Shown piece after piece: positions 428-22,511 of a DNA stretch of 22,511 nt. The notes under the pieces were generated by a model that saw only the letters and a program-made list of their open reading frames with translations, had not been told where the DNA came from and searched no databases. Made by a program: the position numbers and the translations under genes. The stretch comes from Promethearchaeota archaeon. Its GTDB lineage: Archaea; Asgardarchaeota; Lokiarchaeia; Sigyniarchaeales; SOKP01. The stretch's first letter is position 1; every line of letters begins with the position of its first letter. Location: the NCBI GenBank assembly GCA_004524535.1, contig SDNY01000055.1, positions 1-22,511 on the forward strand, in the 5' to 3' direction.

Positions 428-2746
428 TTATTGCTTGGACATTTCTGCCCGATAATTCGCCTCAGCGCTTTTGCGGTTCTCCTCTTTCACCCTTCTACGT
501 TGAGTCATTCCCCCCAAAAGGTCCCGTGTAGTACGACGCCCTGTGTATTTTATTAGATCGATGACCACGCGATGAATAATCCCAGAAAATTTAAAGGGCC
601 CTTCATAGTCGTTAGTAACGGGAGAAAGGCTGTCTCGACCTATATCCGTACCCGTAGAGGATAAGATATGAAGGAGGTATGGAATTGGGATTGAACCGCA
701 TTCTTTTCCATTTATTGAAAGAGTGAGTGTTCCATCCCTTTTTTTCCTCTCGAAATGAGCGGTGACCGTGGATTTCCCAATAGGGACCGTTATATCAGAG
801 CGTACTACATGATGATCCATGAACAGGTTAAAATCAAAAACCAAATGAGAGTCTTTAATGTAAAAAGTCAACCCCCCATTCATCGTACCCACGGCAACAA
901 GCACGCCTTCGTCAGTATCATTATTTCGCTGGATTTCTGCATTAATTTTCCATGAACGAGCAGCACTTAAAGGACCCACACCCGCAGGTAAATGGCTAAT
1001 CGGCGGATAATAGACATAATGACGACTTGAGTGTACCGAACCTGGTGGTCGAGACGACAAGAACAATTCTATGTTCCTATCGTCAAGCGGTAGTACGCCA
1101 TAGCGCCCAGCCTCAGCCCACCATAGATCAATCATTTCTTTTAGTTTTTCAGGTTTCTCTGAGGCGAGATCATGGCATTCAGAAAAATCTTCATCTAAAT
1201 GATACAATTCCCATTCTTTCATATCAAATGGTTTCCCCTTGGTGTGATGCGTAACGGCTTTCCAGCCATCGTGAACAATTCCTCGATGACCAAACATTTC
1301 AAAATATTGCGTATGTTTACGAGTCTTCTCCTCAGGTCCATCGAAAGTATAAACCATTGATGTTCCAGAAATCGGTATCTGATCGTATCCTTTATAAGAT
1401 GGAGCGGGTTCTATTTCAAGAAGTTCTAAAATTGTTGGCATTATATCGGTGACGTGGTGAAATTGATTACGGATTCCACCTTTATCTTTAATTATTTTTG
1501 GCCAATGAATGATTAAAGGATCGCGAATTCCCCCACCATGCGTGTTTTGCTTATACCATTTGAGAGGGGTGTTGCCTACTTGAGCCCATCCCCATGGATA
1601 ATTTGAGTGACTATTCGGTCCGCCAATATCATCTAAGCGATCTTGAATGGCGTCGACATCTTCTAATCTTGCATTAAAAAATTTCAGTTCCTCCATTATC
1701 CCTGCATGACCGCCTTCTTGACTCGCTCCATTGTCAGAAAACAACACGATTAACGTGTTCTCTTTTTCATCGATTTCTTCAAGGAACGAGATTAATCGTC
1801 CGATTTGATGATCTGTATGATCAAGAAAAGCTGCGAACGCCTCTTGCAACCGGCAAGCAAATCTTTTTTCATTCTCGGATAAATCATCCCACGCTTTAAC
1901 GCCATTATTGCGAGGGGCCAAATCTGTTCCCGGTGGAATGACTCCCATTTCGAGCTGTCTTTTGTACCATTCCTCTCGCGTGATATCCCAACCAGCGTCA
2001 AATTTTCCTCGATATTTTTGACGATATTCTAGCGGAGATTGATGTGGAGCGTGCGTCGCGCCGAACGCTAAATATAAAAAGAAGGGTTTGTTAGGTCGTA
2101 TAGATTTTAAGTCGCGGATGAATTCCATGGAACGATCAACGAGATCTTCACTAACATGATATCCATCTTCAGGTCCATATGGAGGATCAATGGGGTGATT
2201 ATCGTAAGTTAATTCAGGGTAGAACTGATCGGTCTCTCCTTGCATGAAACCATAAAACCGATCAAATCCTCTCTTCAGAGGCCAACTATCAAATGGTCCT
2301 CCCATCGATGCTTCCTCCATTTGCGTAAGATGCCATTTTCCTGTCATAAATGTGATATAGCCTTCTTCTTGCAAGATTTCTCCAAGAGTCGCTGCGTGCT
2401 TTGAAATGGAACCACGTAGGTTGGGGAATCCCGAATTCATGTTCGAAACTGCCCGCATCCCCACTGCGTGATGGTTACGCCCAGTTAACAAGCAAGCTCT
2501 CGTAGGGGAGCATAATGCCGTGGTGTGAAAGTTCGTATACCTTAAGCCTCCAGCAGCGAGCTTGTCAATGTTTGGAGTATCAATGGACGAACCATAGCAT
2601 CCAAAATGGGAGAAGCCAGTATCATCCAGTAGAATCACCACAATATTTGGACTTCCATCGCCAAGGCGCTTCGGTGTAGGCCACCAAGGTTCTGATTCCT
2701 TAAGTGTTCGACCGATCTTTCCTTTAAAAATTTCTTTTCCAGTCAT
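428..2746 (-). CDS. Cys-type (formylglycine-dependent) arylsulfatase, ~772 aa, with C-terminal beta-sandwich extension; copy 1
   Basis: PNIVVILLDD metal-binding motif, LCSPTRACLLTGR (CxPxR signature, Cys79), GKWHL, APH and SDNG motifs. Start placed at ATG 2746 (MTGKEIF) because the paralog shares this start; the ORF track extends to 2779. No signal peptide apparent. Confidence 0.93.
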   Translation of the reverse strand: MTGKEIFKGKIGRTLKESEPWWPTPKRLGDGSPNIVVILLDDTGFSHFGCYGSSIDTPNIDKLAAGGLRYTNFHTTALCSPTRACLLTGRNHHAVGMRAVSNMNSGFPNLRGSISKHAATLGEILQEEGYITFMTGKWHLTQMEEASMGGPFDSWPLKRGFDRFYGFMQGETDQFYPELTYDNHPIDPPYGPEDGYHVSEDLVDRSMEFIRDLKSIRPNKPFFLYLAFGATHAPHQSPLEYRQKYRGKFDAGWDITREEWYKRQLEMGVIPPGTDLAPRNNGVKAWDDLSENEKRFACRLQEAFAAFLDHTDHQIGRLISFLEEIDEKENTLIVLFSDNGASQEGGHAGIMEELKFFNARLEDVDAIQDRLDDIGGPNSHSNYPWGWAQVGNTPLKWYKQNTHGGGIRDPLIIHWPKIIKDKGGIRNQFHHVTDIMPTILELLEIEPAPSYKGYDQIPISGTSMVYTFDGPEEKTRKHTQYFEMFGHRGIVHDGWKAVTHHTKGKPFDMKEWELYHLDEDFSECHDLASEKPEKLKEMIDLWWAEAGRYGVLPLDDRNIELFLSSRPPGSVHSSRHYVYYPPISHLPAGVGPLSAARSWKINAEIQRNNDTDEGVLVAVGTMNGGLTFYIKDSHLVFDFNLFMDHHVVRSDITVPIGKSTVTAHFERKKRDGTLTLSINGKECGSIPIPYLLHILSSTGTDIGRDSLSPVTNDYEGPFKFSGIIHRVVIDLIKYTGRRTTRDLLGGMTQRRRVKEENRKSAEANYRAEMSKQ

Positions 2747-3017
2747 TATAATCAACTTTTTTGTTGAGATTATTATCATTTCCTATTATTTAAGGATTAC
2801 TCTTAGTGGTTACCAGTAGTGTAAAGTCTAAATAAAATCCTTCATATTAATAAAATGAGTAAAAACGGGGAAAGAAGGGATTTTTTAAAAGAAATTTCGA
2901 CTTTTCTACTAATTAATCCTTCTGGGATATAAAATTTTATAGAAAAATAGGACTATCCTTTAAATAAAATTATTAAAAAAAGGAAATATATAAAGATAGA
3001 GCCGCTGTTATAAGAAT

Positions 3018-5336
3018 TTACTGCTTGGACATTTCTGACCGATAATATGCCTCAGCGCGCTTACGTCTATCCCCTTTCAGCTTTTCCCCTGAAGCTCTTC
3101 CCGCAAAAATATCCAGTGACGTATAAGGTCCTTTGTATTCTGGAACATCGATAATTATGCGACGAATATCCCCGGAAAATTCAAAGGGACCTTTATAGTC
3201 GTTAGTAATCGGGGAAAGCGTATCTTTTCCGATGTCCATACCTGTGGAAGAGAAAATATAAAGAATGTATGGAATTGGGATTGAACCACACTCTTTTCCA
3301 TTTATTGAAAGGGTGAGTGTTCCTTTTCTTTTTTTCCTCACGAAATGAGCGCGAACCGTGGATTCTCCAGTAGGTATCGTTATATCAGAACGTACTACAT
3401 GATGCTCCATGAACATGTTAAAATCAAAAACCAAATGAGAATCTTTGATATAAAACGTAAATCCTCCATTCATCGTACCTAAAGAAAGAAGAACACCTTC
3501 GTCGGTATCACTAGCTCGTTGGATTTCTACATCCATTGTCCATGTACAACCACCCATTTGTGGAGCTGCATCTGCTGGTATGTGGCTCATAGGGGGATAA
3601 TAAACATAATGACGATTTGCATGTACTGATCCAGGTTGATATCGACTTCCAAATAATTCAAGGAGCCTATCATCAAGCGGTAGCACATCATAGCGCCCAG
3701 CCTCCGCCCACCATAGATCAATCATGTCTTTTAGTTTTTCAGGCTTCTCTGAGGCGAGATTATGGCATTCAGAAAAATCTTCGTCTAAATGATATAGCTC
3801 CCATTCTCTCACATCAAATGGGTGCCCCTTAATGTGATGAGTAACGGCTTTCCAACCATCGTGTACAATACCCCTGTGACCAAACATTTCAAAATATTGA
3901 ATGTGCTTACGAGTCTTTTCTTCAGGTCCATCGAAGGTATAAACCATTGATGTTCCAGATATTGGGATCTGATCATATCCTTTATAAGATGGAGCGGGTT
4001 CTATATCAAGAAGTTCTAAGATGGTCGGAACGATATCGGTTACATGGTGAAATTGATTTCGGATCCCGCCTTTATCTTTAATTCTTTTTGGCCAATACAT
4101 GATTAAAGGATCTCGAACTCCCCCGCCGTGTGTGTTCATTTTGTACCATTTGAGTGGAGTATTGCCCACTTGGGCCCATCCCCATGGATAATTTGAAGAA
4201 CTATTTGGTCCGCCAATATCATCTAAGCGATCTTGAATGGCGTCTACATCTGTTGACCTTGCATTAAAATATCTCAATACATCCATCATTCCTTCTTGAC
4301 CGCCTTCTTGACTCGCTCCATTGTCAGAAAACAACACGATTAACGTGTTCTCTTTTTCATCGATTTCTTCAAGGAACGAGATTAATCGTCCGATTTGATG
4401 ATCTGTATGATCAAGAAAAGCTGCGAATGCTTCTTGCAATCGACATGCGAATCTTTTTTGGTTTTCAGATAATTCATCCCATGCTTGCACACCTTTATTA
4501 CGTGGAGCCAGCTCAGTTTCAGGAGGTATGACGCCCATTTCGAGTTGTCTTTTGTACCATTCCTCTCGCGTGATATCCCAACCAGCGTCAAATTTCCCTC
4601 GATATTTTTGCCGATACTCTAGTGGAGATTGATGTGGAGCGTGAGTCGCGCCAAAAGCTAAATATAAAAAGAAAGGTTTGTCAGGTCGTATGGATTTTAG
4701 ATCCCGGATGAATTCAATGGAACGATCAACGAGATCTTCACTAACATGATATCCATTTTCAGGCCCATACGGAGGATCAACGGGGTGATTATCGTAAGTT
4801 AATTCAGGGTAGAACTGATCGGTTTCGCCTTGCATGAAACCATAATACCGATCAAATCCTCTCCTGAGAGGCCAACTATCAAATGGTCCTCCCATCGTTG
4901 CTTCCTCCATTGGAGTAAGATGCCATTTTCCTGTCATTAATGTGGTATAGCCTTCTTCTTGCAAGATTTCTCCAAGAGTCGCTGCGTGTTTTGAAATGGA
5001 CCCACGTAGGTTAGGGAATCCCGAAATCATGTTCGAGAGTCCCCGCATTCCAACGGTGTGATGATTACGCCCAGTTAACAAGCAAGCCCTCGTCGGGGAG
5101 CATAATGCCGTGGTGTGGAAATTTGTATATCGCAAACCCCCATAGGCGAGCTTGTCAATGTTTGGAGTATCAATGGAAGAACCAAAGCAACCAAAATGCG
5201 AAAAGCCAGTATCGTCAAGCAAGATCACGATTACATTTGGACTTCCATCGCCAAGACGCTTCGGTGTCGGCCACCAAGGTTCTGATTCCTCAAGTGTGCG
5301 ACCGATCTTTCCTTTAAAAATTTCTTTTCCAGTCAT
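3018..5336 (-). CDS. Cys-type arylsulfatase, ~772 aa; copy 2 (tandem paralog)
   Basis: Same motifs (LLDD, CSPTR, GKWHL, SDNG). Same length as copy 1 (2319 nt) at a constant offset of 2590 nt. The ORF track start at 5345 is an upstream TTG. Confidence 0.93.
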   Translation of the reverse strand: MTGKEIFKGKIGRTLEESEPWWPTPKRLGDGSPNVIVILLDDTGFSHFGCFGSSIDTPNIDKLAYGGLRYTNFHTTALCSPTRACLLTGRNHHTVGMRGLSNMISGFPNLRGSISKHAATLGEILQEEGYTTLMTGKWHLTPMEEATMGGPFDSWPLRRGFDRYYGFMQGETDQFYPELTYDNHPVDPPYGPENGYHVSEDLVDRSIEFIRDLKSIRPDKPFFLYLAFGATHAPHQSPLEYRQKYRGKFDAGWDITREEWYKRQLEMGVIPPETELAPRNKGVQAWDELSENQKRFACRLQEAFAAFLDHTDHQIGRLISFLEEIDEKENTLIVLFSDNGASQEGGQEGMMDVLRYFNARSTDVDAIQDRLDDIGGPNSSSNYPWGWAQVGNTPLKWYKMNTHGGGVRDPLIMYWPKRIKDKGGIRNQFHHVTDIVPTILELLDIEPAPSYKGYDQIPISGTSMVYTFDGPEEKTRKHIQYFEMFGHRGIVHDGWKAVTHHIKGHPFDVREWELYHLDEDFSECHNLASEKPEKLKDMIDLWWAEAGRYDVLPLDDRLLELFGSRYQPGSVHANRHYVYYPPMSHIPADAAPQMGGCTWTMDVEIQRASDTDEGVLLSLGTMNGGFTFYIKDSHLVFDFNMFMEHHVVRSDITIPTGESTVRAHFVRKKRKGTLTLSINGKECGSIPIPYILYIFSSTGMDIGKDTLSPITNDYKGPFEFSGDIRRIIIDVPEYKGPYTSLDIFAGRASGEKLKGDRRKRAEAYYRSEMSKQ

Positions 5337-5420
5337 TTTAATCAACTTTTTTGAATAAAAATTATACTATTCCTAATTCTTTAATATATCATAATATAAT
5401 TAAAATTGAATTTAAATTTA

Positions 5421-6629
5421 TTATTTCATACAACAATCTTTATATTTTTTACCGCTTCCACAAGGGCATGGAGCATTACGACCAATTTTTGGTATTTTAA
5501 TTGGAATATGAGTCTTAATATTGCGTTCAGTTCTAATTTGCTGCGCTATTCTTTTAAATTGCGTTAAAGTATGTGCATAAAACATCCTCCAGCCTTTGCA
5601 TAGAACGCTTAATGTTCTTGATGAATTAGAACCACCAATTCGAAATTTTTGGCAATCTCCATGACAGAGATTTATATAATGACAGTTATTACAATACTCA
5701 TTCCAATTAGCTTTTTGGCGTCCAAAGCGAAGATATACGGGAGATTTTAAAAAATCATCCCAAGTACCTGTTTTCAGATTTCCAAGCAAAAGATCTTTGC
5801 GAACAAAAAAATCGCATGGATAAACATTACCATCGTATTCAACAACAAAATACTGACAACAATTATTATTCATGAAGCAAACATTATACCTTCCATATAC
5901 TAAATACTCCAAAATTGAATCAAATAAACGGATAGAAATCTTATACATGTCCTCCTTTATCCATTCGTCAAATAATTCGCATAGAAAAGTTCCCCATTCT
6001 TTTCCCGTTATGGAATAGCTATGAGGTTTATTATTGTTATCAAATTCAACACAAGGGATATATTGATGATAGAAAAAACCTTGCGACTTCATATATTGAT
6101 ATATTTCCCTTGCTTTCTTTACAGTTTTATTATTAACTAAAATTAAGATGTTAAACTCTACATTATGTTTTTTTAGAATTTCAATACCACGCATAACTAA
6201 AGAATGAGTTGGTGTCTTACCGATAGTTTTTCTGTAATAATCGTGAAGATATGGAGGTCCATCTAGACTCACTCCAAGAAGGAATTTATATTTTCCAAAA
6301 AACTTAGCCATCTCTTCCGTAATTAACGTCCCATTTGTCTGAAGGCCATTACTTACAGCAGCACCAGGAGGGCCGTATTTTTTTTGGAATTCTATAACCT
6401 TTTCAAAGAATTTTAATCCCATTAACGTAGGTTCCCCTCCTTGCCATCCAAAAGAATAATTATTATATTGATTTGTGCTCATATAGCTTTTTATCAAAAT
6501 TTCTAATATCTCATCAGACATGCGAGGGGCATTTTTTCCCTCTTCTAAATGGTCTATATAAAAACAATATTTACATCTGAGATTACAATCTGCTGAAGCG
6601 GGTTTTATCAATAGGGAAAAAGGTTTCAA
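5421..6629 (-). CDS. Anaerobic sulfatase-maturating enzyme (anSME; radical SAM/SPASM) with C-terminal SEC-C motif
   Basis: IKPASADCNLRCKYCFY (CxxxCxxC), WQGGEPTL, LQTNG, SLDGP, SPASM cysteines (VYPCDF; CNNCHYINLCHGDC) and terminal GRNAPCPCGSGKKYKDCC. TTG start. Sits directly upstream of the sulfatases. Confidence 0.93.
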   Translation of the reverse strand: MKPFSLLIKPASADCNLRCKYCFYIDHLEEGKNAPRMSDEILEILIKSYMSTNQYNNYSFGWQGGEPTLMGLKFFEKVIEFQKKYGPPGAAVSNGLQTNGTLITEEMAKFFGKYKFLLGVSLDGPPYLHDYYRKTIGKTPTHSLVMRGIEILKKHNVEFNILILVNNKTVKKAREIYQYMKSQGFFYHQYIPCVEFDNNNKPHSYSITGKEWGTFLCELFDEWIKEDMYKISIRLFDSILEYLVYGRYNVCFMNNNCCQYFVVEYDGNVYPCDFFVRKDLLLGNLKTGTWDDFLKSPVYLRFGRQKANWNEYCNNCHYINLCHGDCQKFRIGGSNSSRTLSVLCKGWRMFYAHTLTQFKRIAQQIRTERNIKTHIPIKIPKIGRNAPCPCGSGKKYKDCCMK

Positions 6630-8280: not shown

Positions 8281-9642
8281 ATGTCCAAGAAATTTTCAAG
8301 ATTACCTTTGAAAGGCATGGAGGATTTTTTTCCCTCAGATATTAGAGAAATTAATTGGATTATAGAACAAATCATAGATATTGTAGAACTTTACAATTAT
8401 GAAGAATATCTAGGACCATTGTTAGAGCCTATTGAAATCTATGCAGCAAAATCATCTGAAGAGCTAGTTTATGAACAATCTTATTACATAGAGGATAAAA
8501 AAGGAAGGAAATTTATTTTAAGACCAGAGATAACTCCAACTTTAGCGAGAATGATTGCTCGTAAAAGTCAAGAACTTAAAAAACCAATTAGATGGTATGC
8601 AATTCCAACTTGTTATCGCTATGAAGCTCCACAGAAAGGAAGAAGGAGAGAATTTCTTCAGTTTAACGCAGATATTTTAGGAGAAGATAGTCTTTATGCA
8701 GAATTAGAGATATTTAGCATCAGCGTCGATATTTTTACGAGTTTTGGTGCAACTGCTGATCAATTTCAGATTTTTTATAATAACCGTAGATTTATAGATG
8801 ATATTTGTGAGCTTATTCTTGAGATTCCTAAGGATAAAATGCCTCTCGTCTTTAAGATTTTAGATAAATCAGATAAAATGGAAGAAAGCGAATTTGAAAA
8901 GTATGTCATTGATTCCTTCCAAGATGAGTTCATTGTTCAAGGAATCTTAAAACTGAAGGAATCTAACGGAATACAAGAATTATTGGATAAATTTGATGAG
9001 ATTCCTGAAAAATTCTACGATTCTGAGGGATATAAGGATATTAAATCTTTAGAAGTTCTAATCAATGAAACGGGACTTTCAGAATTTTGTACATTCTCAT
9101 CGAGTGTCGTAAGAGGATTAGATTATTATACTGGAACCGTATTTGAGGTATATGATACAGGGAAAGAAAATATAAGAGCTATTTTTGGTGGTGGAAGATA
9201 TGATGATTTATTATCTTTATTTTCTGAGGAGCAATTATCTGGGATTGGATTTGGAATGGGAGTGCTGATGTTCTCTTTATTTTTAAATACGTATAATTTA
9301 ATTCCAGACTTTGTTTATGAAAGGGATTTCTCTGATACAGTTTATATTACGTGCGTCAACGAATCCGTAGCCAAATACGCTATCCAGCTCGCAAATATTA
9401 TTCGGGGTGAAGATTTTCCTTGTATTATTGATTATAAATTTAAGAGTTTAAAAAGTCAATTGAGCAGAGCGAGTGAGTTAGGGATTCTAATAGCTTTAAT
9501 CGTTGGAGAAAAAGAGATGGAACAAAATGAAGTCTCAATAAAAAATATGGCTACAAATAAACAAAAAACAATAAATTCTGAAGATATAATAGAGGAAATT
9601 TACAAAATTCTTGATGAATTAGAAGAAATGGAATCAGAATAA
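8281..9642 (+). CDS. hisS: Histidine--tRNA ligase
   Basis: KGMEDFFP, LRPEITP, motif 2 YRYEAPQKGRRREFLQ, His-A loop VRGLDYYTG, His-B GGGRYDDL, and a C-terminal anticodon-binding domain. Confidence 0.96.
   Translation: MSKKFSRLPLKGMEDFFPSDIREINWIIEQIIDIVELYNYEEYLGPLLEPIEIYAAKSSEELVYEQSYYIEDKKGRKFILRPEITPTLARMIARKSQELKKPIRWYAIPTCYRYEAPQKGRRREFLQFNADILGEDSLYAELEIFSISVDIFTSFGATADQFQIFYNNRRFIDDICELILEIPKDKMPLVFKILDKSDKMEESEFEKYVIDSFQDEFIVQGILKLKESNGIQELLDKFDEIPEKFYDSEGYKDIKSLEVLINETGLSEFCTFSSSVVRGLDYYTGTVFEVYDTGKENIRAIFGGGRYDDLLSLFSEEQLSGIGFGMGVLMFSLFLNTYNLIPDFVYERDFSDTVYITCVNESVAKYAIQLANIIRGEDFPCIIDYKFKSLKSQLSRASELGILIALIVGEKEMEQNEVSIKNMATNKQKTINSEDIIEEIYKILDELEEMESE
9266..9642 (+). repeat. Left copy of ~377-bp direct repeat (hisS 3' end, anticodon-binding domain)
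   Basis: Aligns by eye to 14760-15135 from 'tgatgttctctttattttta' to the stop codon, with ~26 substitutions plus one 1-bp indel (~93% identity). Confidence 0.95.
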
Positions 9643-11198: not shown

Positions 11199-13484
11199 AT
11201 GAGAAGATATCCAAATTTGAAGACTATTGCGTTCATCGGGAATTATCTCCCGAGGAGATGTGGTATTGCAACATTTACCAGTGATTTATTACAAGCTGTT
11301 GCTAAAGAAGGAGATAAAATCGATTGTTGGGCAATCGCGATGAATGACATACCAGAAGGGTATGCCTATCCAAAACAAGTTCGTTTTGAATTGAACGTTA
11401 ATTCTATAGCAGATTATCAATTAGCTGCAGAGTTTCTTAATGTAAATAAGGTTGATGTTGTTTCGCTTCAACATGAATACGGAATATATGGAGGAGATTA
11501 TGGTAATCTTATTTTAAGTTTAATTCGAAATCTAAGAATGCCAGTTATTACTACTTTACACAGTATTTTGCCAAATCCAAATACAACACAAGAAAAAATA
11601 ATAAAATCTATTGCCGAAATTTCAAATAAAATAGTAGTCATGAGCCAAAAAGCAGTATCGTTTCTAAAAGATATTTATAAAGTTCCCATAGAAAAAATTG
11701 CTTTAATCCATCATGGAATTCCTGATCTACCATTCATAGATCCCAATTTTTTCAAGGATCAATTCGGAGTAGAAGGAAAAAAAGTGTTTTTAACATTTGG
11801 TCTTATTAATCCCGGCAAAGGAATAGAAATAATGATTGATGCTTTGCCAGCAATCATTCGAAAACATCCTGATGTCGTTTATATTATATTAGGTGCGACT
11901 CATCCAAATATAAAAAAAGAAAATGGCGAAGCTTATCGTCATTCTCTTCAAAGAAGAGCTCGAGATCTTGATGTTGAAAACAATCTCATTTTTCATAATA
12001 GATTTGTTGATTTAAATGAATTGTGTGAGTTTCTAGGCGTTGCCGATATATATATCACACCATATTTAAATAAGGAACAAATCACCTCTGGAACCTTAGC
12101 CTATGCTCTTGGTGCAGGTAAGGCGATAATCTCAACACCTTATTGGTATGCTGAGGAGATTCTAGCTGAAGGAAGGGGAATTATCGTCCCATTCAATGAT
12201 TCCAATTCTATAGCAGAAAAAATAATTAACTTACTAGATAATGAAGCAGAAGGACATAATATGCGAAAACAAGCATATTTATTCTCCAGAAAAATGATTT
12301 GGAAAGAAGTTGCTAGAAATTATTTAGAAATTTTTGATGAGCTCGTACAAAAGAGATCATGCTATCCAGAGTCTTTATCACGGAGAAAATCTCTGAGAAC
12401 CACACCTTTTGAAATGCCTGACCCAAAATTTGATCACTTATATCGTTTAACAGATGATGTTGGTATTCTACAACACGCTAATTATATCATACCAAATCGA
12501 AATCATGGATATTGCACCGATGATAACGCGAGGGCAATAATCACTGTTTTACTTGCACAAAATCTTTCACTCGAGGATAAATTTCTAAATAAATATGGAT
12601 ATCGATATTTGAGTTTTATCTTGCACGCATTCAACGAAGATAATAACAGATTTCGAAATTTTATGAGTTATGATCGGAAATGGATAGAAGAGATGGGATC
12701 TGAAGATAGTCACGGTCGTGCAATCTGGAGTTTAGGTTTCACTATTGGTGTTTCAGATGTTAAAGAATATGAAAATGTAGCATTGGAAATATTTGATAAA
12801 GCTGTAGAAAGTCTATCCAAATTTAATTCGCCTCGTGCCTTAGCTTTTGGTCTGATAGGTATTCACGCATATTTATCAAGATTTAGTGGTGATCGCAGAA
12901 TTAAACTGTATCGAAAAGAGATTGCACATAAGTTATTTGAGATGTATTGTCAAAACGCTCAAGATGATTGGCCTTGGATTGAAAATATTGTTGCGTATGA
13001 TAATGGGAAAATTCCACAAGCTTTATTAATGTCAGGACAATGGTTACAGCGACAAGATATGGTTGAAGCGGGACTGCAGTCGCTAGATTGGTTACTAAGA
13101 ATTCAAACAAGTGAAAAAGGACATTTAACACCTATTGGTAATAACGGTTGGTATCCAAAAGGTGGTGAGATTGCACGATTTGATCAACAACCACTCGAAG
13201 TCCAGAGCATCCTTGAGGCATGTATTGAAGCTTTCAAAGTCACTCAAGATAAAAAATGGATTCTCGAAGCACAACGGTGTTTAGAATGGTACTTAGGACG
13301 CAATGATTTGAACATTTCTATCTATGATTATAAAACTGGAGGATGCAGTGATGGATTATCAGCCAAAGGAAAAGCTAGAAATCAAGGTGCAGAATCTACC
13401 TTAGCTTGGTTGCTCTCACTTTTAAACATGTATTACTTAGACACGCTCCTTGAAGTTGATATAATAACAAAAGAAAGTGAATGA
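11199..13484 (+). CDS. GT4 glycosyltransferase fused to a C-terminal six-hairpin (alpha/alpha)6 glycosidase-like domain
   Basis: N-terminal PRRCGIATF, QHEYGIYGG, TFGLINPGKGIE, TSGTLAYALGAGKAIISTPY. C-terminal GILQHA..GYCTDDNAR, SEDSHGRA, YDNGKIP, FDQQPLE, NQGAESTL. Confidence 0.88.
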   Translation: MRRYPNLKTIAFIGNYLPRRCGIATFTSDLLQAVAKEGDKIDCWAIAMNDIPEGYAYPKQVRFELNVNSIADYQLAAEFLNVNKVDVVSLQHEYGIYGGDYGNLILSLIRNLRMPVITTLHSILPNPNTTQEKIIKSIAEISNKIVVMSQKAVSFLKDIYKVPIEKIALIHHGIPDLPFIDPNFFKDQFGVEGKKVFLTFGLINPGKGIEIMIDALPAIIRKHPDVVYIILGATHPNIKKENGEAYRHSLQRRARDLDVENNLIFHNRFVDLNELCEFLGVADIYITPYLNKEQITSGTLAYALGAGKAIISTPYWYAEEILAEGRGIIVPFNDSNSIAEKIINLLDNEAEGHNMRKQAYLFSRKMIWKEVARNYLEIFDELVQKRSCYPESLSRRKSLRTTPFEMPDPKFDHLYRLTDDVGILQHANYIIPNRNHGYCTDDNARAIITVLLAQNLSLEDKFLNKYGYRYLSFILHAFNEDNNRFRNFMSYDRKWIEEMGSEDSHGRAIWSLGFTIGVSDVKEYENVALEIFDKAVESLSKFNSPRALAFGLIGIHAYLSRFSGDRRIKLYRKEIAHKLFEMYCQNAQDDWPWIENIVAYDNGKIPQALLMSGQWLQRQDMVEAGLQSLDWLLRIQTSEKGHLTPIGNNGWYPKGGEIARFDQQPLEVQSILEACIEAFKVTQDKKWILEAQRCLEWYLGRNDLNISIYDYKTGGCSDGLSAKGKARNQGAESTLAWLLSLLNMYYLDTLLEVDIITKESE

Positions 13485-16069: not shown

Positions 16070-18205
16070 TTATTTTTTACGTACTTGGCACATTACTCCT
16101 TGAATACAATTAATTCCAATCTCGGGATCATAAGGAGGGTAAAAAGAACATAAAAAGTTAATATTTGTATTCAGGTATCCATTCTCTTCAGTCTTCTTTT
16201 CAGGCATCCACCATCCATAAATTCCATTTACTGTATCAGGACGAATACCTTCAAATATTTTTACCTTATGTTGGATCGATCCTTTGGGAGTTTCAATAAT
16301 TACCATATCTCCATCTTTAATTCCGCGTTCATGTGCTGTATTAGGATTTATTAGTAATTCCGGATATTGGTTTTCTTTCTTAACCCAAGGATATCCTGCT
16401 CCTCGTGTAAGGTAATAATTCTGCACTCTTCTAGTAGTCAAATAAAGAGGATATCGTTCACTTAGATGTGGTAAAGATACTGCGCTATCCCCACATTCAT
16501 GATACGTAGGTAAGGGGTCATACCCTAATCTCTCCATGCGTTCTGAATAAAGCTCTACTTTACCTGAGGGGGTTTTGAAACCCTTTTTTTTATATTTTTT
16601 ATACTTGGGTCTCCATGTCATTGGACTCACCTTACAAAGAGTCTCAAAATTTATTGGCCCCCCATTACTAACTGTCTGCTCTACAAAACTTTGTGCGTTT
16701 TTCCATGGTAAGTAATTTTTCTTTATATAGCCCTTCTTTACCATTTTTTCAGCTATGTCATATAAAATTTGAAAGGAATCACGACAACCCTCGGGCGCAT
16801 CCACTAATTTGGGCATTGTACTTATCCAACTCCCATAAGAGCTTATCATAATAAAATCATATTCATACAAATGTTTTATAGGTAGAATGAGATCTGCTAA
16901 GTCTGAGGATGGACTAGGGGTATATGCCAAAACCATCAGAAAATCAATCTTCTTCATGGCTTCAATCACTTTTTGCGCACTAGCATATGCCATAACTGGA
17001 TTATTCCAAAATACGATCCATGCTTTCACGGGATAAGGTTCATTATGAATCATACCATTAATCAGGGATGGGTTGTGTGGTCGTCTCATAACAGCGTCAG
17101 GACCAGCCCATAAAGGAAATCGATCGGCTCCCATGGTTTGATCTTCGACCTCTTTGTCTACTATGGCACTTTTAAGAAAGTCCCCAAAAACAAAGTCTTC
17201 TCTGCCTGGAGGTCCTTGCGCAAGTCTATTTCCTCCTTTTACATCAATATTACCACAAATTGAAATCAATGCTGCAAAACTGCGACATGCCTGAGTAGAA
17301 TTCGCGTGTTGACAAACACCATTATTACCTCGATAACTAGCTGGTCCATTTGTAGCATACATTCTAGCAGCCTTTACAATCTCATCAACTGAAAGCGACG
17401 TGACCTCTGCTGCCCATTCTGGAGTATATTGTTGAATATGACTTTTAAGTTTATCAAATCCTAAGCAATAATTGTTGACGAATTCATCATCATAAAGCTT
17501 TTCTTCTATTATAACATTAACCATTGCCAAAGCTAAAGCACCATCACTTCCAGGACGAATCTGAAGATAAAGATCCGCGAATTCGGCAGCTTCACACCGT
17601 CGGGGATCCACAACAATGAGTTTAGCTCCATTACTCATAGCTGTTTTAATATCTTGCCATTGACCTCCACATGAATGTGGCAAATTCGTTCCTACCAAGA
17701 GAATACATTTAGAGTTTTTAAAATCTTGAGAACTACGATAAATTGTAATACACTCCCCATAAGTTAACGGATCAGCAGTCTCAGCAGTCCCCTGACAAAG
17801 ATCTCGATTAGTTATTGTATTTGGACTATTTATCGATTTCATAAATAAGGCAACGCTTGGCCACTCTGCCATTGTTGCACATATAGATTTCGGGTTGAAT
17901 TTTTCAATGACTTCCCCTAATCGATCAGCTGCTATTCCATAAGCTTCTTCCCAAGATATTTCTTTAAATCCTGATGTGGTCCTTAAAAGGGGTTTTGTGA
18001 AGCGATTAGGATGATAAATAACCTGCCAATCATTAAGTCCTTTAGGACATGCATAACCCTTACTCTGCGGATGGTTCTTATCTCCTTCCATTTTGATTAT
18101 TTTGTTATTTTTCACATCTACAGTTGCTACAATCCCGTCATAAGAGGGACATGACCACCAGGGACAAATTGTCCTAATTTTTTTAAAATTATTGTTATTA
18201 CTCAT
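16070..18205 (-). CDS. Mo/W-bisPGD (DMSO reductase family) enzyme, acetylene-hydratase-like clade, cytoplasmic
   Basis: N-terminal Fe-S segment (C14, C19, D23, ACPKG C53), HPNRFTKPL, ISWEEA, SPN...LC (Cys137, candidate metal ligand), VDPR, IRPGSDGAL, TPSGKVELYS, INP..A..RGI.DGD and C-terminal GWWMPE. No Tat signal. Confidence 0.85.
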   Translation of the reverse strand: MSNNNNFKKIRTICPWWSCPSYDGIVATVDVKNNKIIKMEGDKNHPQSKGYACPKGLNDWQVIYHPNRFTKPLLRTTSGFKEISWEEAYGIAADRLGEVIEKFNPKSICATMAEWPSVALFMKSINSPNTITNRDLCQGTAETADPLTYGECITIYRSSQDFKNSKCILLVGTNLPHSCGGQWQDIKTAMSNGAKLIVVDPRRCEAAEFADLYLQIRPGSDGALALAMVNVIIEEKLYDDEFVNNYCLGFDKLKSHIQQYTPEWAAEVTSLSVDEIVKAARMYATNGPASYRGNNGVCQHANSTQACRSFAALISICGNIDVKGGNRLAQGPPGREDFVFGDFLKSAIVDKEVEDQTMGADRFPLWAGPDAVMRRPHNPSLINGMIHNEPYPVKAWIVFWNNPVMAYASAQKVIEAMKKIDFLMVLAYTPSPSSDLADLILPIKHLYEYDFIMISSYGSWISTMPKLVDAPEGCRDSFQILYDIAEKMVKKGYIKKNYLPWKNAQSFVEQTVSNGGPINFETLCKVSPMTWRPKYKKYKKKGFKTPSGKVELYSERMERLGYDPLPTYHECGDSAVSLPHLSERYPLYLTTRRVQNYYLTRGAGYPWVKKENQYPELLINPNTAHERGIKDGDMVIIETPKGSIQHKVKIFEGIRPDTVNGIYGWWMPEKKTEENGYLNTNINFLCSFYPPYDPEIGINCIQGVMCQVRKK

Positions 18206-18256: not shown

Positions 18257-19384
18257 TCATTCAATAAATTGTTTAATTTTAATAGGTTTCCCTCCCGAAC
18301 GAGCTGATTGAGATGCAGCTATTCCCGCTAAACAGAAATTTGCCCCGATTTTCGCATGTATTGGTGATTTTTTATTATTTTCAATTGCGGTTAGCCACTC
18401 ATTCATAATCCGAGTTGAAGCCCCATAATGAAGGCCATCTAAAGATGGAACAATTTCAGCTAATTTATCTTTATCAATTTTTTTTGATCTTCCTTTTCTA
18501 TGGAGACTTATCGTGATTTTATGCCCATCTGCGAGGAATAATTTACCTGGTTTATCAATTTGATAGCATTCATAGGTTCCCGTTCTACCAACAACTTGGA
18601 TTATAATGCGTGTAGGCTCCCGGGCAAAAATAAATGCATTGGCACATTTCGCAATTGCTCCTGTTTCGGTTCGAAATAGTCCTACATGAAACGCTTTAGC
18701 AGGACTGCATATAGGCTTCCCTTCAAATCCCCCAATATCATTTGAATAGCTTACTACTTCTATAAAGGGCATAGGATTCTCAATACCACCCATAGCAACT
18801 TGAGCAGGACCAATTGAATGAGCATACATTAAAGGATCAAACTGTTGATACCAAGAATCCACACGTGGGACATCAACATCCCCGTGTCTTTCTTTTCTCC
18901 ATCGATAAGTAACATCATGTAGATATTCCGATTCTGCATATACAATTGGACCAATTTTACCAGATGAAGCAAGATAACCTGCATATAAGACCTCGGAAAA
19001 AAAGCAATAATTTTCTCCTAAGAGATATATTTTTCCTGATTGGTCTTCAGCAGCGATAATTTTCTCAAGAAATTTTTCCTCTATTGCCATTGGTACTTCA
19101 GAAAACACGTGTAAACCAGACTCCAATGCAGCAACAGCTTGTTCTGCATGAAATCGTGGTGGACTACTAATAATTATAGCATCAAGCTCGGGAGTATCCA
19201 GAAAATCATCAAATGATTTGGCTGCTTTAACCTCGTTTAATTCCTTTAATTTTTGAGTAGCTTCTGGATTTGGATCAAATCCTGCAACTAGGTTGGAGCG
19301 TCCTTGAAGTATTGGAAATTTCGAAAGCTCCATTACATGACTGAATCCATTAAGTCCATAACCTACTAAACCATAATTTATCAT
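18257..19384 (-). CDS. Gfo/Idh/MocA family NAD(P)-dependent oxidoreductase
   Basis: GLVGYGLNG Rossmann motif, IISSPPRFH, HVFSEVPMA (variant of EKP), GENY, ESEYLHD. Confidence 0.88.
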   Translation of the reverse strand: MINYGLVGYGLNGFSHVMELSKFPILQGRSNLVAGFDPNPEATQKLKELNEVKAAKSFDDFLDTPELDAIIISSPPRFHAEQAVAALESGLHVFSEVPMAIEEKFLEKIIAAEDQSGKIYLLGENYCFFSEVLYAGYLASSGKIGPIVYAESEYLHDVTYRWRKERHGDVDVPRVDSWYQQFDPLMYAHSIGPAQVAMGGIENPMPFIEVVSYSNDIGGFEGKPICSPAKAFHVGLFRTETGAIAKCANAFIFAREPTRIIIQVVGRTGTYECYQIDKPGKLFLADGHKITISLHRKGRSKKIDKDKLAEIVPSLDGLHYGASTRIMNEWLTAIENNKKSPIHAKIGANFCLAGIAASQSARSGGKPIKIKQFIE

Positions 19385-21114: not shown

Positions 21115-22511
21115 ATGGTAGAAACTAAAAGCGATATTTCTAAAGATAACGAGGAAATTCGAATTTTCGTTGCTGTCTGTCAATGAGGGATAAATATAGC
21201 AGAAATTATTGACTGTACTGCTCTTGTAGAATTCTCAAAGGCGCTTCCGAATGTTGTTGAGGCCTCAGATTATATTAGTCTTTGCACAGAACCTGGTGCT
21301 GAGTTTATAAAAGAAAAAATGATTGAATGCAACGCTAATAGGTTAGTAGTAGCATCATGCACACCGAAGACACATGAACCTGTCTTTAAAAGCATATTAG
21401 AATCAATGAATCTAGACCCATCATTTTTAGAGTTTGTAAATATCCGTGAACATTCAAGTTTTGTTCATCGAAATGATAAACCAGGTGCTCAGAAGGTTGC
21501 TGAAGATTTAATTCGGTCAGGAGTTGTGAGAGCTGCAGTTTTAGAACCAATTTTAATTAAAGAAGTTGATATAACTAAAAAAACATTAATAATTGGCGGC
21601 GGAGTCGCTGGCTTATCTGCCGGAATTGATATAGCTGAACAAGGTTTTGAAGTTCACTTGGTTGAAAAAAGTCCTACAATAGGAGGAAAAATGGCTCAAT
21701 TAGATCGCACATTCCCAACAGACGATTGTAGCATATGAATTCTCGGACCAGTAATGCTTCAAACCACAAGAACTCCAGGGCTCAATCTTTACACTTATAG
21801 TGAGATAGAATATGTAGAAGGCTTTATTGGAAATTTTAAAGTAAAAGTAAGAAAGAAGGCTCGATATGTTACTAATGATTGCAATGGATGCGGAGCTTGT
21901 TTTGAAGTATGTCCTGCGTTTGGAAATAACGAGTTTAACGAGGGAATGGACCCAAGAAAAGCAATTTACGTCTCATTTGCTCAAGCTGTTCCTTCTTTAG
22001 CTCAAATTGATATGGATAGATGCATAAAATGTGAATTATGTAAAGATGCTTGTGAACTTGAAGCTATAGATTTTAATCAAGAAGATGAAATTATCGAGCT
22101 GGAAGTTGGTTCAATTATAGTCGCTACAGGTTGGGATGAATACACGCCTGAAATCGGCTATTTAGGCTATAATATATATCCAAATGTAATCACTGAGTTA
22201 AAACTCGAAAGAATATTAGCACCGAATGGACCAACTATAGGGCACCTTGTTAGACCATCTGATGGAAAACGACCCAAAAGAATTTTATTTATTCAATGCG
22301 TAGGATCCCGAGATTTAAACAAAAATACATATTGTAGTGCTGGTGTTTGTTGTATGATTGCTATTAAAAATACGAAACTAATCAAACAACATTATCCAGA
22401 TACAGAAATCGATGTTGCTTACATGGATATACGAGCTGCTGGAAAAGATTATGAAGAATATTTTACAGCATCTAGAAAAGAAGGGATAAGATATATTAGA
22501 ACAAACATCTC
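21115..22511 (+). CDS. hdrA: Heterodisulfide reductase subunit A-like FAD/Fe-S protein, probable selenoprotein with two in-frame UGA (Sec24, Sec208); partial, runs off the right edge
   Basis: From ATG 21115: ...IRIFVAVCQ-TGA(21184-6)-GINIA...LCTEPG...ASCTPKTHE...NIREH...IIGGGVAG...IGGKMAQLDRTFPTDDCSI-TGA(21736-8)-ILGP...CNGCGACFEVCP...CIKCELCKDAC...IQCVGSRD...YCSAGVCCMIAIK...YMDIRAAGK. No other stop in 465 codons. Confidence 0.93.

Follow-up and report, generated by a model that had tools for sequence, protein, structure and literature searches.

The stretch of DNA analysed here, the window, comprises 22,511 nucleotides and is an entire contig (C145; SDNY01000055.1) of a 3.66-Mb, 198-contig genome of Promethearchaeota archaeon (GCA_004524535.1). 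At its 3′ end lies the first part of hdrA, a gene for a heterodisulfide reductase subunit A-like flavoprotein (HdrA), the frame of which contains two TGA codons as its only in-frame stops and is otherwise open to position 22509, at the window end (Table 1). A previous examination of the letters alone, called here the sequence-only reading, had proposed that both TGAs encode selenocysteine (Sec, U) and that the 139-amino-acid open reading frame (ORF) 21319-21738 of the mechanical ORF list is only the segment between them. On re-reading, the coordinates and motifs of both TGAs and the 465 open codons proved correct, and the nature of the short ORF was confirmed against the list. Judging from the sequence evidence presented below, both in-frame TGAs are almost certainly read as Sec.

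Table 1. Features of the part of hdrA contained in the window (an asterisk in a motif marks the TGA).
Feature	Position	Strand	Remark
hdrA 5′ part, 465 codons, heterodisulfide reductase subunit A-like flavoprotein	21115..22511	+	start ATG 21115-21117
N-terminal alpha/beta domain, residues 12-140	21148..21534	+	four invariant Cys positions 22, 24 (= U), 57 and 82 of mobile [4Fe-4S] shuttle cluster HA3
TGA codon 24, in VCQ*GINIA	21184..21186	+	second Cys position of N-terminal C-x-C-G motif; = Cys13 of 5odc_A
FAD-binding Rossmann segment, residues 159-196, with GGGVAG	21589..21702	+	Pfam NAD_binding_8, FAD_binding_2, FAD_oxidored
TGA codon 208, in FPTDDCSI*IL	21736..21738	+	canonical HdrA Sec site, second position of CxxC beside FAD
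Inserted ferredoxin domain, two [4Fe-4S] Cys motifs, residues 251-318	21865..22068	+	Pfam Fer4, Fer4_8, Fer4_7

When the frame was translated with U at both TGAs, Pfam matches to flavin adenine dinucleotide (FAD)/NAD Rossmann families were obtained at residues 158-196 and to Fer4 families at residues 251-318. A phmmer search against the PDB aligned residues 13-462 collinearly with HdrA of Methanothermococcus thermolithotrophicus (5odc_A, E 2.1e-156), and other HdrA chains were matched as well: 8rvu of Methanothermobacter marburgensis (1.6e-145), 9sfi_A (3.7e-142) and 7bkb_A (8.9e-122). In the alignment to 5odc_A, U24 stands opposite Cys13 in the motif C-H-C-G-V-N-I and U208 opposite Cys197 in D-C-S-I-C, and the expectation that HdrA homologs carry Cys at both columns was thereby borne out. 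The equivalents of codon 208 are Cys205 in M. marburgensis (by the offset to 8rvu) and Sec197 in M. maripaludis; by the same offset, C205 of the protein studied here is Cys202 in M. marburgensis numbering. In the sequence-only reading the second site is given as the known Sec position of methanococcal HdrA, which agrees with the M. maripaludis structure (PMC13518236).

All six key Cys positions of HdrA are present, at 22, 24 (U), 57, 82, 205 and 208 (U). The four in the N-terminal domain (C11, C13, C46 and C71 in 5odc numbering) are invariant in the HdrA alignment, and the same four are kept in all HdrA paralogs of the source genome that bear this domain. An AlphaFold2 model of the domain had a mean confidence (pLDDT) of 92.9, and when it was submitted to Foldseek, ranks 1-7 were occupied by HdrA chains with template modelling (TM) scores of 0.90-0.93. 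Read in this way, the protein is a standard five-domain HdrA with N-terminal cluster, FAD, inserted ferredoxin and C-terminal ferredoxin domains. As predicted from the alignments, Sec208 takes the place of the second Cys of the CxxC motif beside the bifurcating FAD, and Sec24 replaces an invariant Cys, one of four in the mobile, HA3-carrying N-terminal domain.

The remainder of the gene is found on another contig. The window shares its last 149 bases (22363-22511) exactly with the start of contig C96 (positions 1-149 of locus L003), where the hdrA frame runs on for 243 codons to a TAG at L003 730-732. Two CxxCxxCxxxCP motifs, read by eye in this part of the translation, correspond to the C-terminal ferredoxin domain. 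The whole gene is about 660 codons long, with the two TGAs as sole in-frame stops and no frameshift. The downstream part, in which further stops or frameshifts would have spoken against the sequence-only reading, is intact on C96 as far as the TAG. A second contig variant of run X1, with 46 differences, covers 21775-22263, so that the assembly may have broken inside hdrA because of strain or paralog variation.

One base after the hdrA TAG begins vhuD (start L003 734, 161 codons, stop TAG 1217-1219), the product of which is recognized by Pfam FlpD (9.1e-43) and matches MvhD/VhuD chains of five solved complexes. This gene also contains two in-frame TGAs, at codons 21 and 72, both opposite X residues of M. 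maripaludis VhuD (9sfi_K), which we take to be Sec; codon 21 is in addition opposite Cys16 of M. marburgensis MvhD (9sw2_D). The arrangement is shared by relatives, vhuD being located 3′ of hdrA in the source locus and in 26 of 29 relatives' loci. Two vhuD TGAs were observed in 25 of 27 loci and a single one in the other two, in one of which the alignment begins past the first site.

A hairpin that could serve as selenocysteine insertion sequence (SECIS) follows 1 nt after the vhuD stop, at L003 1221-1255. Its successive segments are AUGA, AUAUCCAAU, AAAAAUUGUAG, AUUGGAUAU and GA, forming a perfect 9-bp stem closed by the 11-nt loop AAAAAUUGUAG, which starts with AAAAA, on an AUGA...GA core. 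This geometry is that of the published lokiSECIS (PMC4989117). The hairpin lies ~2.4 kb downstream of hdrA codon 24 and ~1.85 kb downstream of codon 208, and no comparable one was found elsewhere on L003. When the 200 nt after vhuD were scanned with a relaxed pattern, an AUGA-stem-loop-GA hairpin was detected at most 45 nt from the stop in 21 of 27 loci, three others being weak and three having none. In the 16 hairpins of 9-11-9 geometry, stem positions 2-9 pair in 14-16 cases with several pair types per position, i.e. in a compensatory manner, and position 1, beside the AUGA/GA core, is paired in only 6. When the surrounding 97 nt were folded by minimum free energy (MFE), most loci showed a basal helix together with a small hairpin on the 3′ side, with differing sequences, a recurrence suggested by folding. 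At the source locus the MFE fold is a three-way junction, with a basal helix pairing L003 1212-1217 with 1273-1278 and overlapping the vhuD stop, and a 3′ hairpin CCCAU-AGC-AUGGG at 1260-1272. A looser, sequence-only SECIS pattern matched the window once, at 8996-9030 inside a histidyl-tRNA synthetase (HisRS) gene; as 0.95 matches were expected by chance, this was taken as noise.

The machinery for Sec synthesis and insertion, for which the sequence-only reading had recommended a search, was found in the genome. SepSecS is encoded at C188:20404-21705 (484.8 bits, cut-off 224.85) and EFSec at C188:25057-25968 (245.6 bits, cut-off 242.25), the best PDB match of the latter being archaeal SelB (4ac9, 5.5e-74), followed by human eEFSec. 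A candidate PSTK is located at C148:7941-8696, with L-seryl-tRNA(Sec) kinase as best PDB match over its full length (1.6e-24). SelD (C64:5004-5780, 187.5 bits, cut-off 125) contains one in-frame TGA and is probably itself a selenoprotein, to judge from this codon.

The gene for tRNA-Sec(UCA) was located by blastn with tRNA-Sec genes of relatives, which matched C188 in three pieces. It lies at C188:21778-21931 on the minus strand, 73 nt from SepSecS and ~3 kb from EFSec, and contains two introns, one of 30 nt in the D arm (21886-21915) and one of 31 nt in the T-loop (21796-21826). After computational removal of both introns, the molecule has 90 nt and a folding energy of -46.6 kcal/mol, and ARAGORN calls it tRNA-SeC(tca). 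The spliced form folds into a 9/4 cloverleaf: its acceptor stem has 9 bp, its D stem 7 bp with a loop of 4 nt and its T stem 4 bp, the anticodon is UCA, the variable arm is long and the discriminator base is G. On the whole genome, ARAGORN run without introns returned 9 tRNAs and no tRNA-Sec; with introns and a lowered threshold it made 254 calls, of which six SeC calls were implausible and were discarded.

In the same genome TGA also serves as a stop. Two of 15 other window ORFs checked end in TGA (11199-13484 and 18257-19384), the other 13 in TAA or TAG, and reading through these two TGAs meets the next stop after 17 and 9 codons, respectively. Genome-wide, a crude count gave a TGA end for 190 of 1450 stop-to-stop frames that have at least 300 codons. 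Because TGA is still a true stop elsewhere, namely at 13482-13484 and 18257-18259, the hdrA codons point to recoding and not to a code change, a distinction already drawn in the sequence-only reading.

The conservation of the codons was followed in relatives. The order-level set consisted of 40 genomes of the same order, the source genome included, which were searched with the protein as query (match at E <= 1e-60). An HdrA match was obtained in 39 of the 40, most top matches containing two or three TGAs and no other stops; identity to orthologs within the family is 76-93%. For column counts, one locus per genome, the best in each case, was aligned from 30 genomes (L018-L047). Column 208 was U in all 30 loci, with neither C nor gap; column 24 was U in 19, C in 10 and a gap in one incomplete locus; column 57 was U in 5, C in 24 and a gap in 1; column 82 was U in 6 and C in 24, with no gap; and one C-terminal column was U in 1, C in 27 and a gap in 2. 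These five Sec-capable columns are all otherwise Cys. Further U's at or before residue 6 in this set are located in the 5′ leader or in N-terminal ends that align poorly, since reading began upstream of the start codons.

A second set was made of 80 loci from a species-representative collection, titled Promethearchaeota, Promethearchaeia and other Asgard names; it shares genomes and kinship with the first, so that the two are not independent samples. Here all 79 loci that cover codon 208 have TGA there, and codon 24 is TGA in 74 of 77, with TGT, the sole alternative seen there, in the other 3. Codon 57 is TGA in 33 loci and codon 82 in 1, and every in-frame stop of the set is a TGA at one of these four Cys columns (24, 57, 82 and 208). 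Since both TGAs stand on invariant Cys columns and the in-frame stops of relatives are only TGAs on five Cys columns, their placement is, as far as the alignments can tell, more than chance. In contigs of X1, the best DNA run and possibly the source sample, both codons are covered and 0 differences occur. Both TGA sites are covered, too, by contigs of RNA-labelled libraries made from other samples, and no variant at these sites in runs X2, X15 and X19 is among the differences listed.

The source genome holds further HdrA genes. Two more paralogs are of the Sec type, one at C27:11017-12372 (minus strand) with TGA at columns 24 and 208, the other at C83:5077-6453 (plus strand) with TGA at columns 24, 82 and 208. 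There are also four all-Cys paralogs and four loci of tandem complementary HdrA halves (contigs C147, C152, C15 and C113), in which a neighbouring copy has the CxxC pair and lacks the N-terminal domain. Tandem complementary HdrA corresponds to a heterodimer pattern described for anaerobic methanotrophic (ANME) archaea (PMC9012536).

Thus the proposal that both hdrA TGAs are Sec codons is backed by the Cys columns, the conservation, the machinery and the intact gene. It is highly probable, from the sequence features taken together, that hdrA and vhuD together make up a selenoprotein unit of two genes in this Asgard archaeon of Loki type (Promethearchaeota), with UGAs that are decoded as Sec. 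We infer that the two genes would be translated from one mRNA and that selenium would be inserted at four UGA codons, 24 and 208 of hdrA and 21 and 72 of vhuD. Decoding would be carried out by Sec-tRNA(UCA), delivered by the archaeal/eukaryotic-type EFSec, and a single eukaryote-like SECIS hairpin behind vhuD may direct it at all four codons.

Other explanations of the TGAs have to be weighed against this one. It is quite improbable that only UGA208 encodes Sec and that UGA24 is a real or conditional stop, yielding a 23-residue peptide with a downstream start or acting as a selenium-sensing attenuator. The canonical site alone has been experimentally shown to be Sec, in methanococci (PMC13518236), and codon 24 is both less fixed, with Cys in 10 of 29 covering loci and TGT in 3 of 77, and, at ~2.4 kb, far from the SECIS. 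However, residues 12-23 upstream of the UGA, including the invariant Cys22, are conserved as protein, and a conditional stop is unlikely because this upstream coding sequence is conserved and TGA is kept in 74 of 77 orthologous loci. An N-terminal domain without residues 1-24 would moreover lose two of its four invariant Cys, and HdrA genes with up to four Sec are described as being served by one SECIS (PMC4989117).

A decaying pseudogene with two nonsense mutations, or TGAs that are sequencing or assembly errors, would agree with the splitting of the gene by standard ORF calling and with the presence of at least six other full-length HdrA paralogs, four of them all-Cys, which could compensate for its loss. 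This has next to no probability, however, as dozens of genomes have TGA at these same two codons, the ~660 codons show no other stop or frameshift at the identity to orthologs given above, and the contigs of run X1 do not differ at either codon. The genome-wide reassignment of UGA to a standard amino acid (Trp, Gly or Cys), with no Sec, is just as hard to credit. Stop-codon reassignment has been reported in some Asgard lineages (PMC9723677), but the TGA-ended window genes have only short non-coding extensions behind their stops, the in-frame TGAs of HdrA fall only on Cys columns, and dedicated Sec machinery and a SECIS are present.

Several points nevertheless weigh against the decoding of the TGAs as Sec in an hdrA-vhuD unit. 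We infer the selenium in the protein and the single hdrA-vhuD transcript from the genes: the contigs from RNA-labelled libraries show only the presence of related sequence and not a single transcript, since such libraries can contain DNA and contigs are silent on transcript ends and strand. The SECIS is on the other contig, and the C145-C96 join, which is made through the exact 149-nt overlap, could be an assembly-graph branch among hdrA paralogs. The hairpins of relatives were picked by a scan that requires pairing, so that the pairing percentages are biased upward and only the compensatory variation is informative; furthermore, the 5 weak matches that Rfam gave for L003 at E up to 10 include no SECIS family, although Rfam may contain no Loki-type model. 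The PSTK candidate scores 144.4 bits, below the NCBIfam cut-off of 290.5. As for tRNA-Sec, the call depends on intron removal in silico, and the Rfam model RF01852 gave nothing above cut-off in the source genome or in the 8 other genomes of its genus. The same model was above cut-off in 11 of 24 genomes searched and in none of the 9 of the source genus; the two introns may explain why covariance-model searches missed the gene in all 9. The below-cut-off matches of RF01852 in the source genome were ordinary tRNAs (Arg, Ser and Gly). Lastly, Cys at codon 24 appears to suffice in 3 of 77 orthologs, so that Sec at this site is not essential.

The chemical role of the two Sec residues can be discussed in the light of published HdrA structures. 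In 2016, the Sec sites of Lokiarchaeota HdrA were stated not to be cluster ligands, save one C-terminal site (PMC4989117), a statement that predates the first HdrA structure, released in 2017. As the crystal structure is read in PMC9012536, the N-terminal [4Fe-4S] cluster is bound by Cys residues of the N-terminal domain and by Cys197 of the partner HdrA subunit. Because Cys197′ binds the partner's cluster, Sec208 would, by analogy, be a selenolate ligand of the partner's N-terminal [4Fe-4S] cluster in the crystal state. In the cryo-electron microscopy (cryo-EM) structure from M. maripaludis, the density between cluster A3 and FAD is continuous and is held by Sec197 together with a Cys, possibly as a selenylsulfide; its role is called unresolved there (PMC13518236, 2026). 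In that from M. marburgensis, Cys202 and Cys205 bind an unknown ligand, and HA3 is the mobile shuttle cluster of the HdrA N-terminal domain (PMC13580544, 2026). Our literature search found no paper mapping the Loki Sec sites onto an HdrA structure and no named N-terminal-domain Cys ligands of HA3.

For Sec24, the sequence-only reading regarded selenium as a probable direct Fe-S ligand. Direct ligation of the N-terminal [4Fe-4S] cluster HA3 by the selenolate of Sec24 is a real possibility, compatible with Sec decoding, to which we give somewhat less than an even chance. Cys residues of the N-terminal domain bind the cluster together with the partner Cys197 (PMC9012536), and the domain has exactly four invariant Cys. 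With Cys197′ as the fourth ligand, three of these four would therefore be ligands and one would be spare, which gives any one of them a prior of three in four. Against a direct ligand stands a weak hhalign local alignment (E 0.011, probability 3.9%) that pairs HdrA C22/U24/C57/C82 with VhuD C18/U21/C47/U72 and thus puts Sec24 opposite VhuD Sec21. The latter is equivalent to MvhD Cys16, which is called an additional conserved Cys and is listed apart from the cluster (PMC13580544).

Other comparisons of the N-terminal domain with MvhD/VhuD were of mixed outcome. In global mode, hhalign found nothing between the HdrA domain and VhuD (E 0.69). In the Foldseek search, MvhD/ElpC chains took ranks 8-11, right after the HdrA chains, with E 2e-4 to 9e-4 and TM scores of 0.43-0.48. 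A wide VIA-align search with the domain returned generic Rossmann-like folds (Z up to 9.6), no MvhD chain being among the 50 matches listed. The weak alignment and the model suggest that Sec24 may be the counterpart of MvhD Cys16, a spare Cys, a relay role being somewhat favoured over direct ligation.

The distribution of Sec sites can be set beside this suggestion. In Loki HdrA they are found on Cys13, Cys46 and Cys71, three of the N-terminal domain's four invariant Cys, and on Cys197 of the CxxC beside FAD. In VhuD, one lies on the MvhD Cys16 position, and the second, by elimination, is probably on a [2Fe-2S] ligand. If the N-terminal domain is MvhD-like, Sec24 would be a spare chalcogenol, and matching selenols on both swinging arms (VhuD Sec21 and HdrA Sec24), together with the docking site Sec208, might constitute a selenol/selenylsulfide or ligand-swap relay; this further step, built on alignment and model, is speculative and rather unlikely. 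Such a relay, if true, would act on either side of the bifurcating flavin, at its entry and at its low-potential exit. It would also be a natural genetic marker for the residues of an electron-transfer step called unresolved in PMC13518236 and PMC13580544.

The surroundings of the pair are of another kind. The window genes before hdrA encode two sulfatases, a radical-SAM/SPASM protein, HisRS, a GH130 phosphorylase, glycosyltransferases, a molybdopterin oxidoreductase and orotidine monophosphate decarboxylase. No hdrB, hdrC or hydrogenase gene was found beside the hdrA-vhuD pair in the window, the rest of the genome not having been searched for hdrB/hdrC. On the minus strand, 428-6629 carries two paralogous sulfatase genes (775-783 amino acids) followed by the radical-SAM/SPASM gene, which ends in a SEC-C motif and, from its sequence, is probably an anaerobic sulfatase-maturating enzyme. 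The molybdopterin oxidoreductase (16070-18205, minus strand, 711 amino acids), 3 kb upstream of hdrA, has an N-terminal Fe4S4 domain and no in-frame TGA. Behind vhuD, a 78-amino-acid ORF on the minus strand (L003 1395-1631) has a CPICxxxxxxxxxxFCQKCG zinc-ribbon motif and no Pfam match, and converges on the SECIS region.

In practical terms, gene callers fragment the ~660-codon hdrA and likewise vhuD, selD and the two further Sec-type hdrA paralogs of the genome. As these selenoprotein genes are cut into fragments, metabolic reconstructions of Asgard metagenome-assembled genomes may miss or misread them. The enzyme is therefore hidden, as the sequence-only reading put it, in so far as standard ORF calling splits the gene; it is not new to the literature, since multi-Sec HdrA of Lokiarchaeota is already in print (PMC4989117). 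The multi-Sec HdrA-VhuD pair with a shared lokiSECIS is known from 2016 (PMC4989117) and 2024 (PMC11227280), and the locus is a further example of what has been published and brings no new principle. The natural Cys-to-Sec replacements mark HdrA/VhuD cysteines that are called mechanistically unresolved in the two 2026 structural papers. The remaining interest lies in the extra Sec24 site on the mobile shuttle-cluster domain, together with the mapping of the Sec sites and the two-intron tRNA-Sec.

Compared with the all-Cys HdrA of M. thermolithotrophicus (5odc_A) and M. marburgensis (8rvu), the cofactor-binding Cys columns are kept; the protein differs from these methanogen enzymes in the replacement of Cys13 and Cys197 by Sec and in its host, an Asgard archaeon. 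With M. maripaludis HdrA/VhuD (9sfi, PMC13518236) it shares the canonical CxxU beside FAD, the same two VhuD Sec columns and the HdrA domain order. The methanococcal HdrA has a single Sec, whereas here the N-terminal domain carries an additional one, and the pair has no hdrBC or hydrogenase genes beside it in the window. Previously described Sec-using archaea have another type of SECIS (PMC4989117).

The closest known systems are the HdrA-VhuD pairs of Lokiarchaeota. In the account of PMC4989117, VhuD is always directly downstream of HdrA and has two Sec, HdrA always ends in UAA or UAG, and one lokiSECIS behind VhuD consists of a 9-bp stem, an 11-nt loop, an AUGA_GA core and an A-run. A later survey catalogued 1439 selenoprotein sequences in Asgard genomes, with a repeated hdrA-frhD/vhuD neighbourhood and shared SECIS (PMC11227280). 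The present locus has the same features: more than one Sec in HdrA, including the canonical site near residue 200, Sec on conserved Cys columns, vhuD with two Sec directly downstream on the same strand, a UAG stop of hdrA and a single SECIS behind vhuD. Five Sec columns were counted here and five positions are reported in PMC4989117; that the CxU site is one of the latter is suggested by the count. The 31-nt T-loop intron of tRNA-Sec is also shared, whereas the second, 30-nt intron in the D arm is seen only here, one intron being described in PMC4989117. The basal helix and 3′ hairpin of the MFE folds are likewise additional to the 9-bp stem and 11-nt loop described there. From the published Loki HdrA-VhuD pairs, the locus shows no difference in kind.

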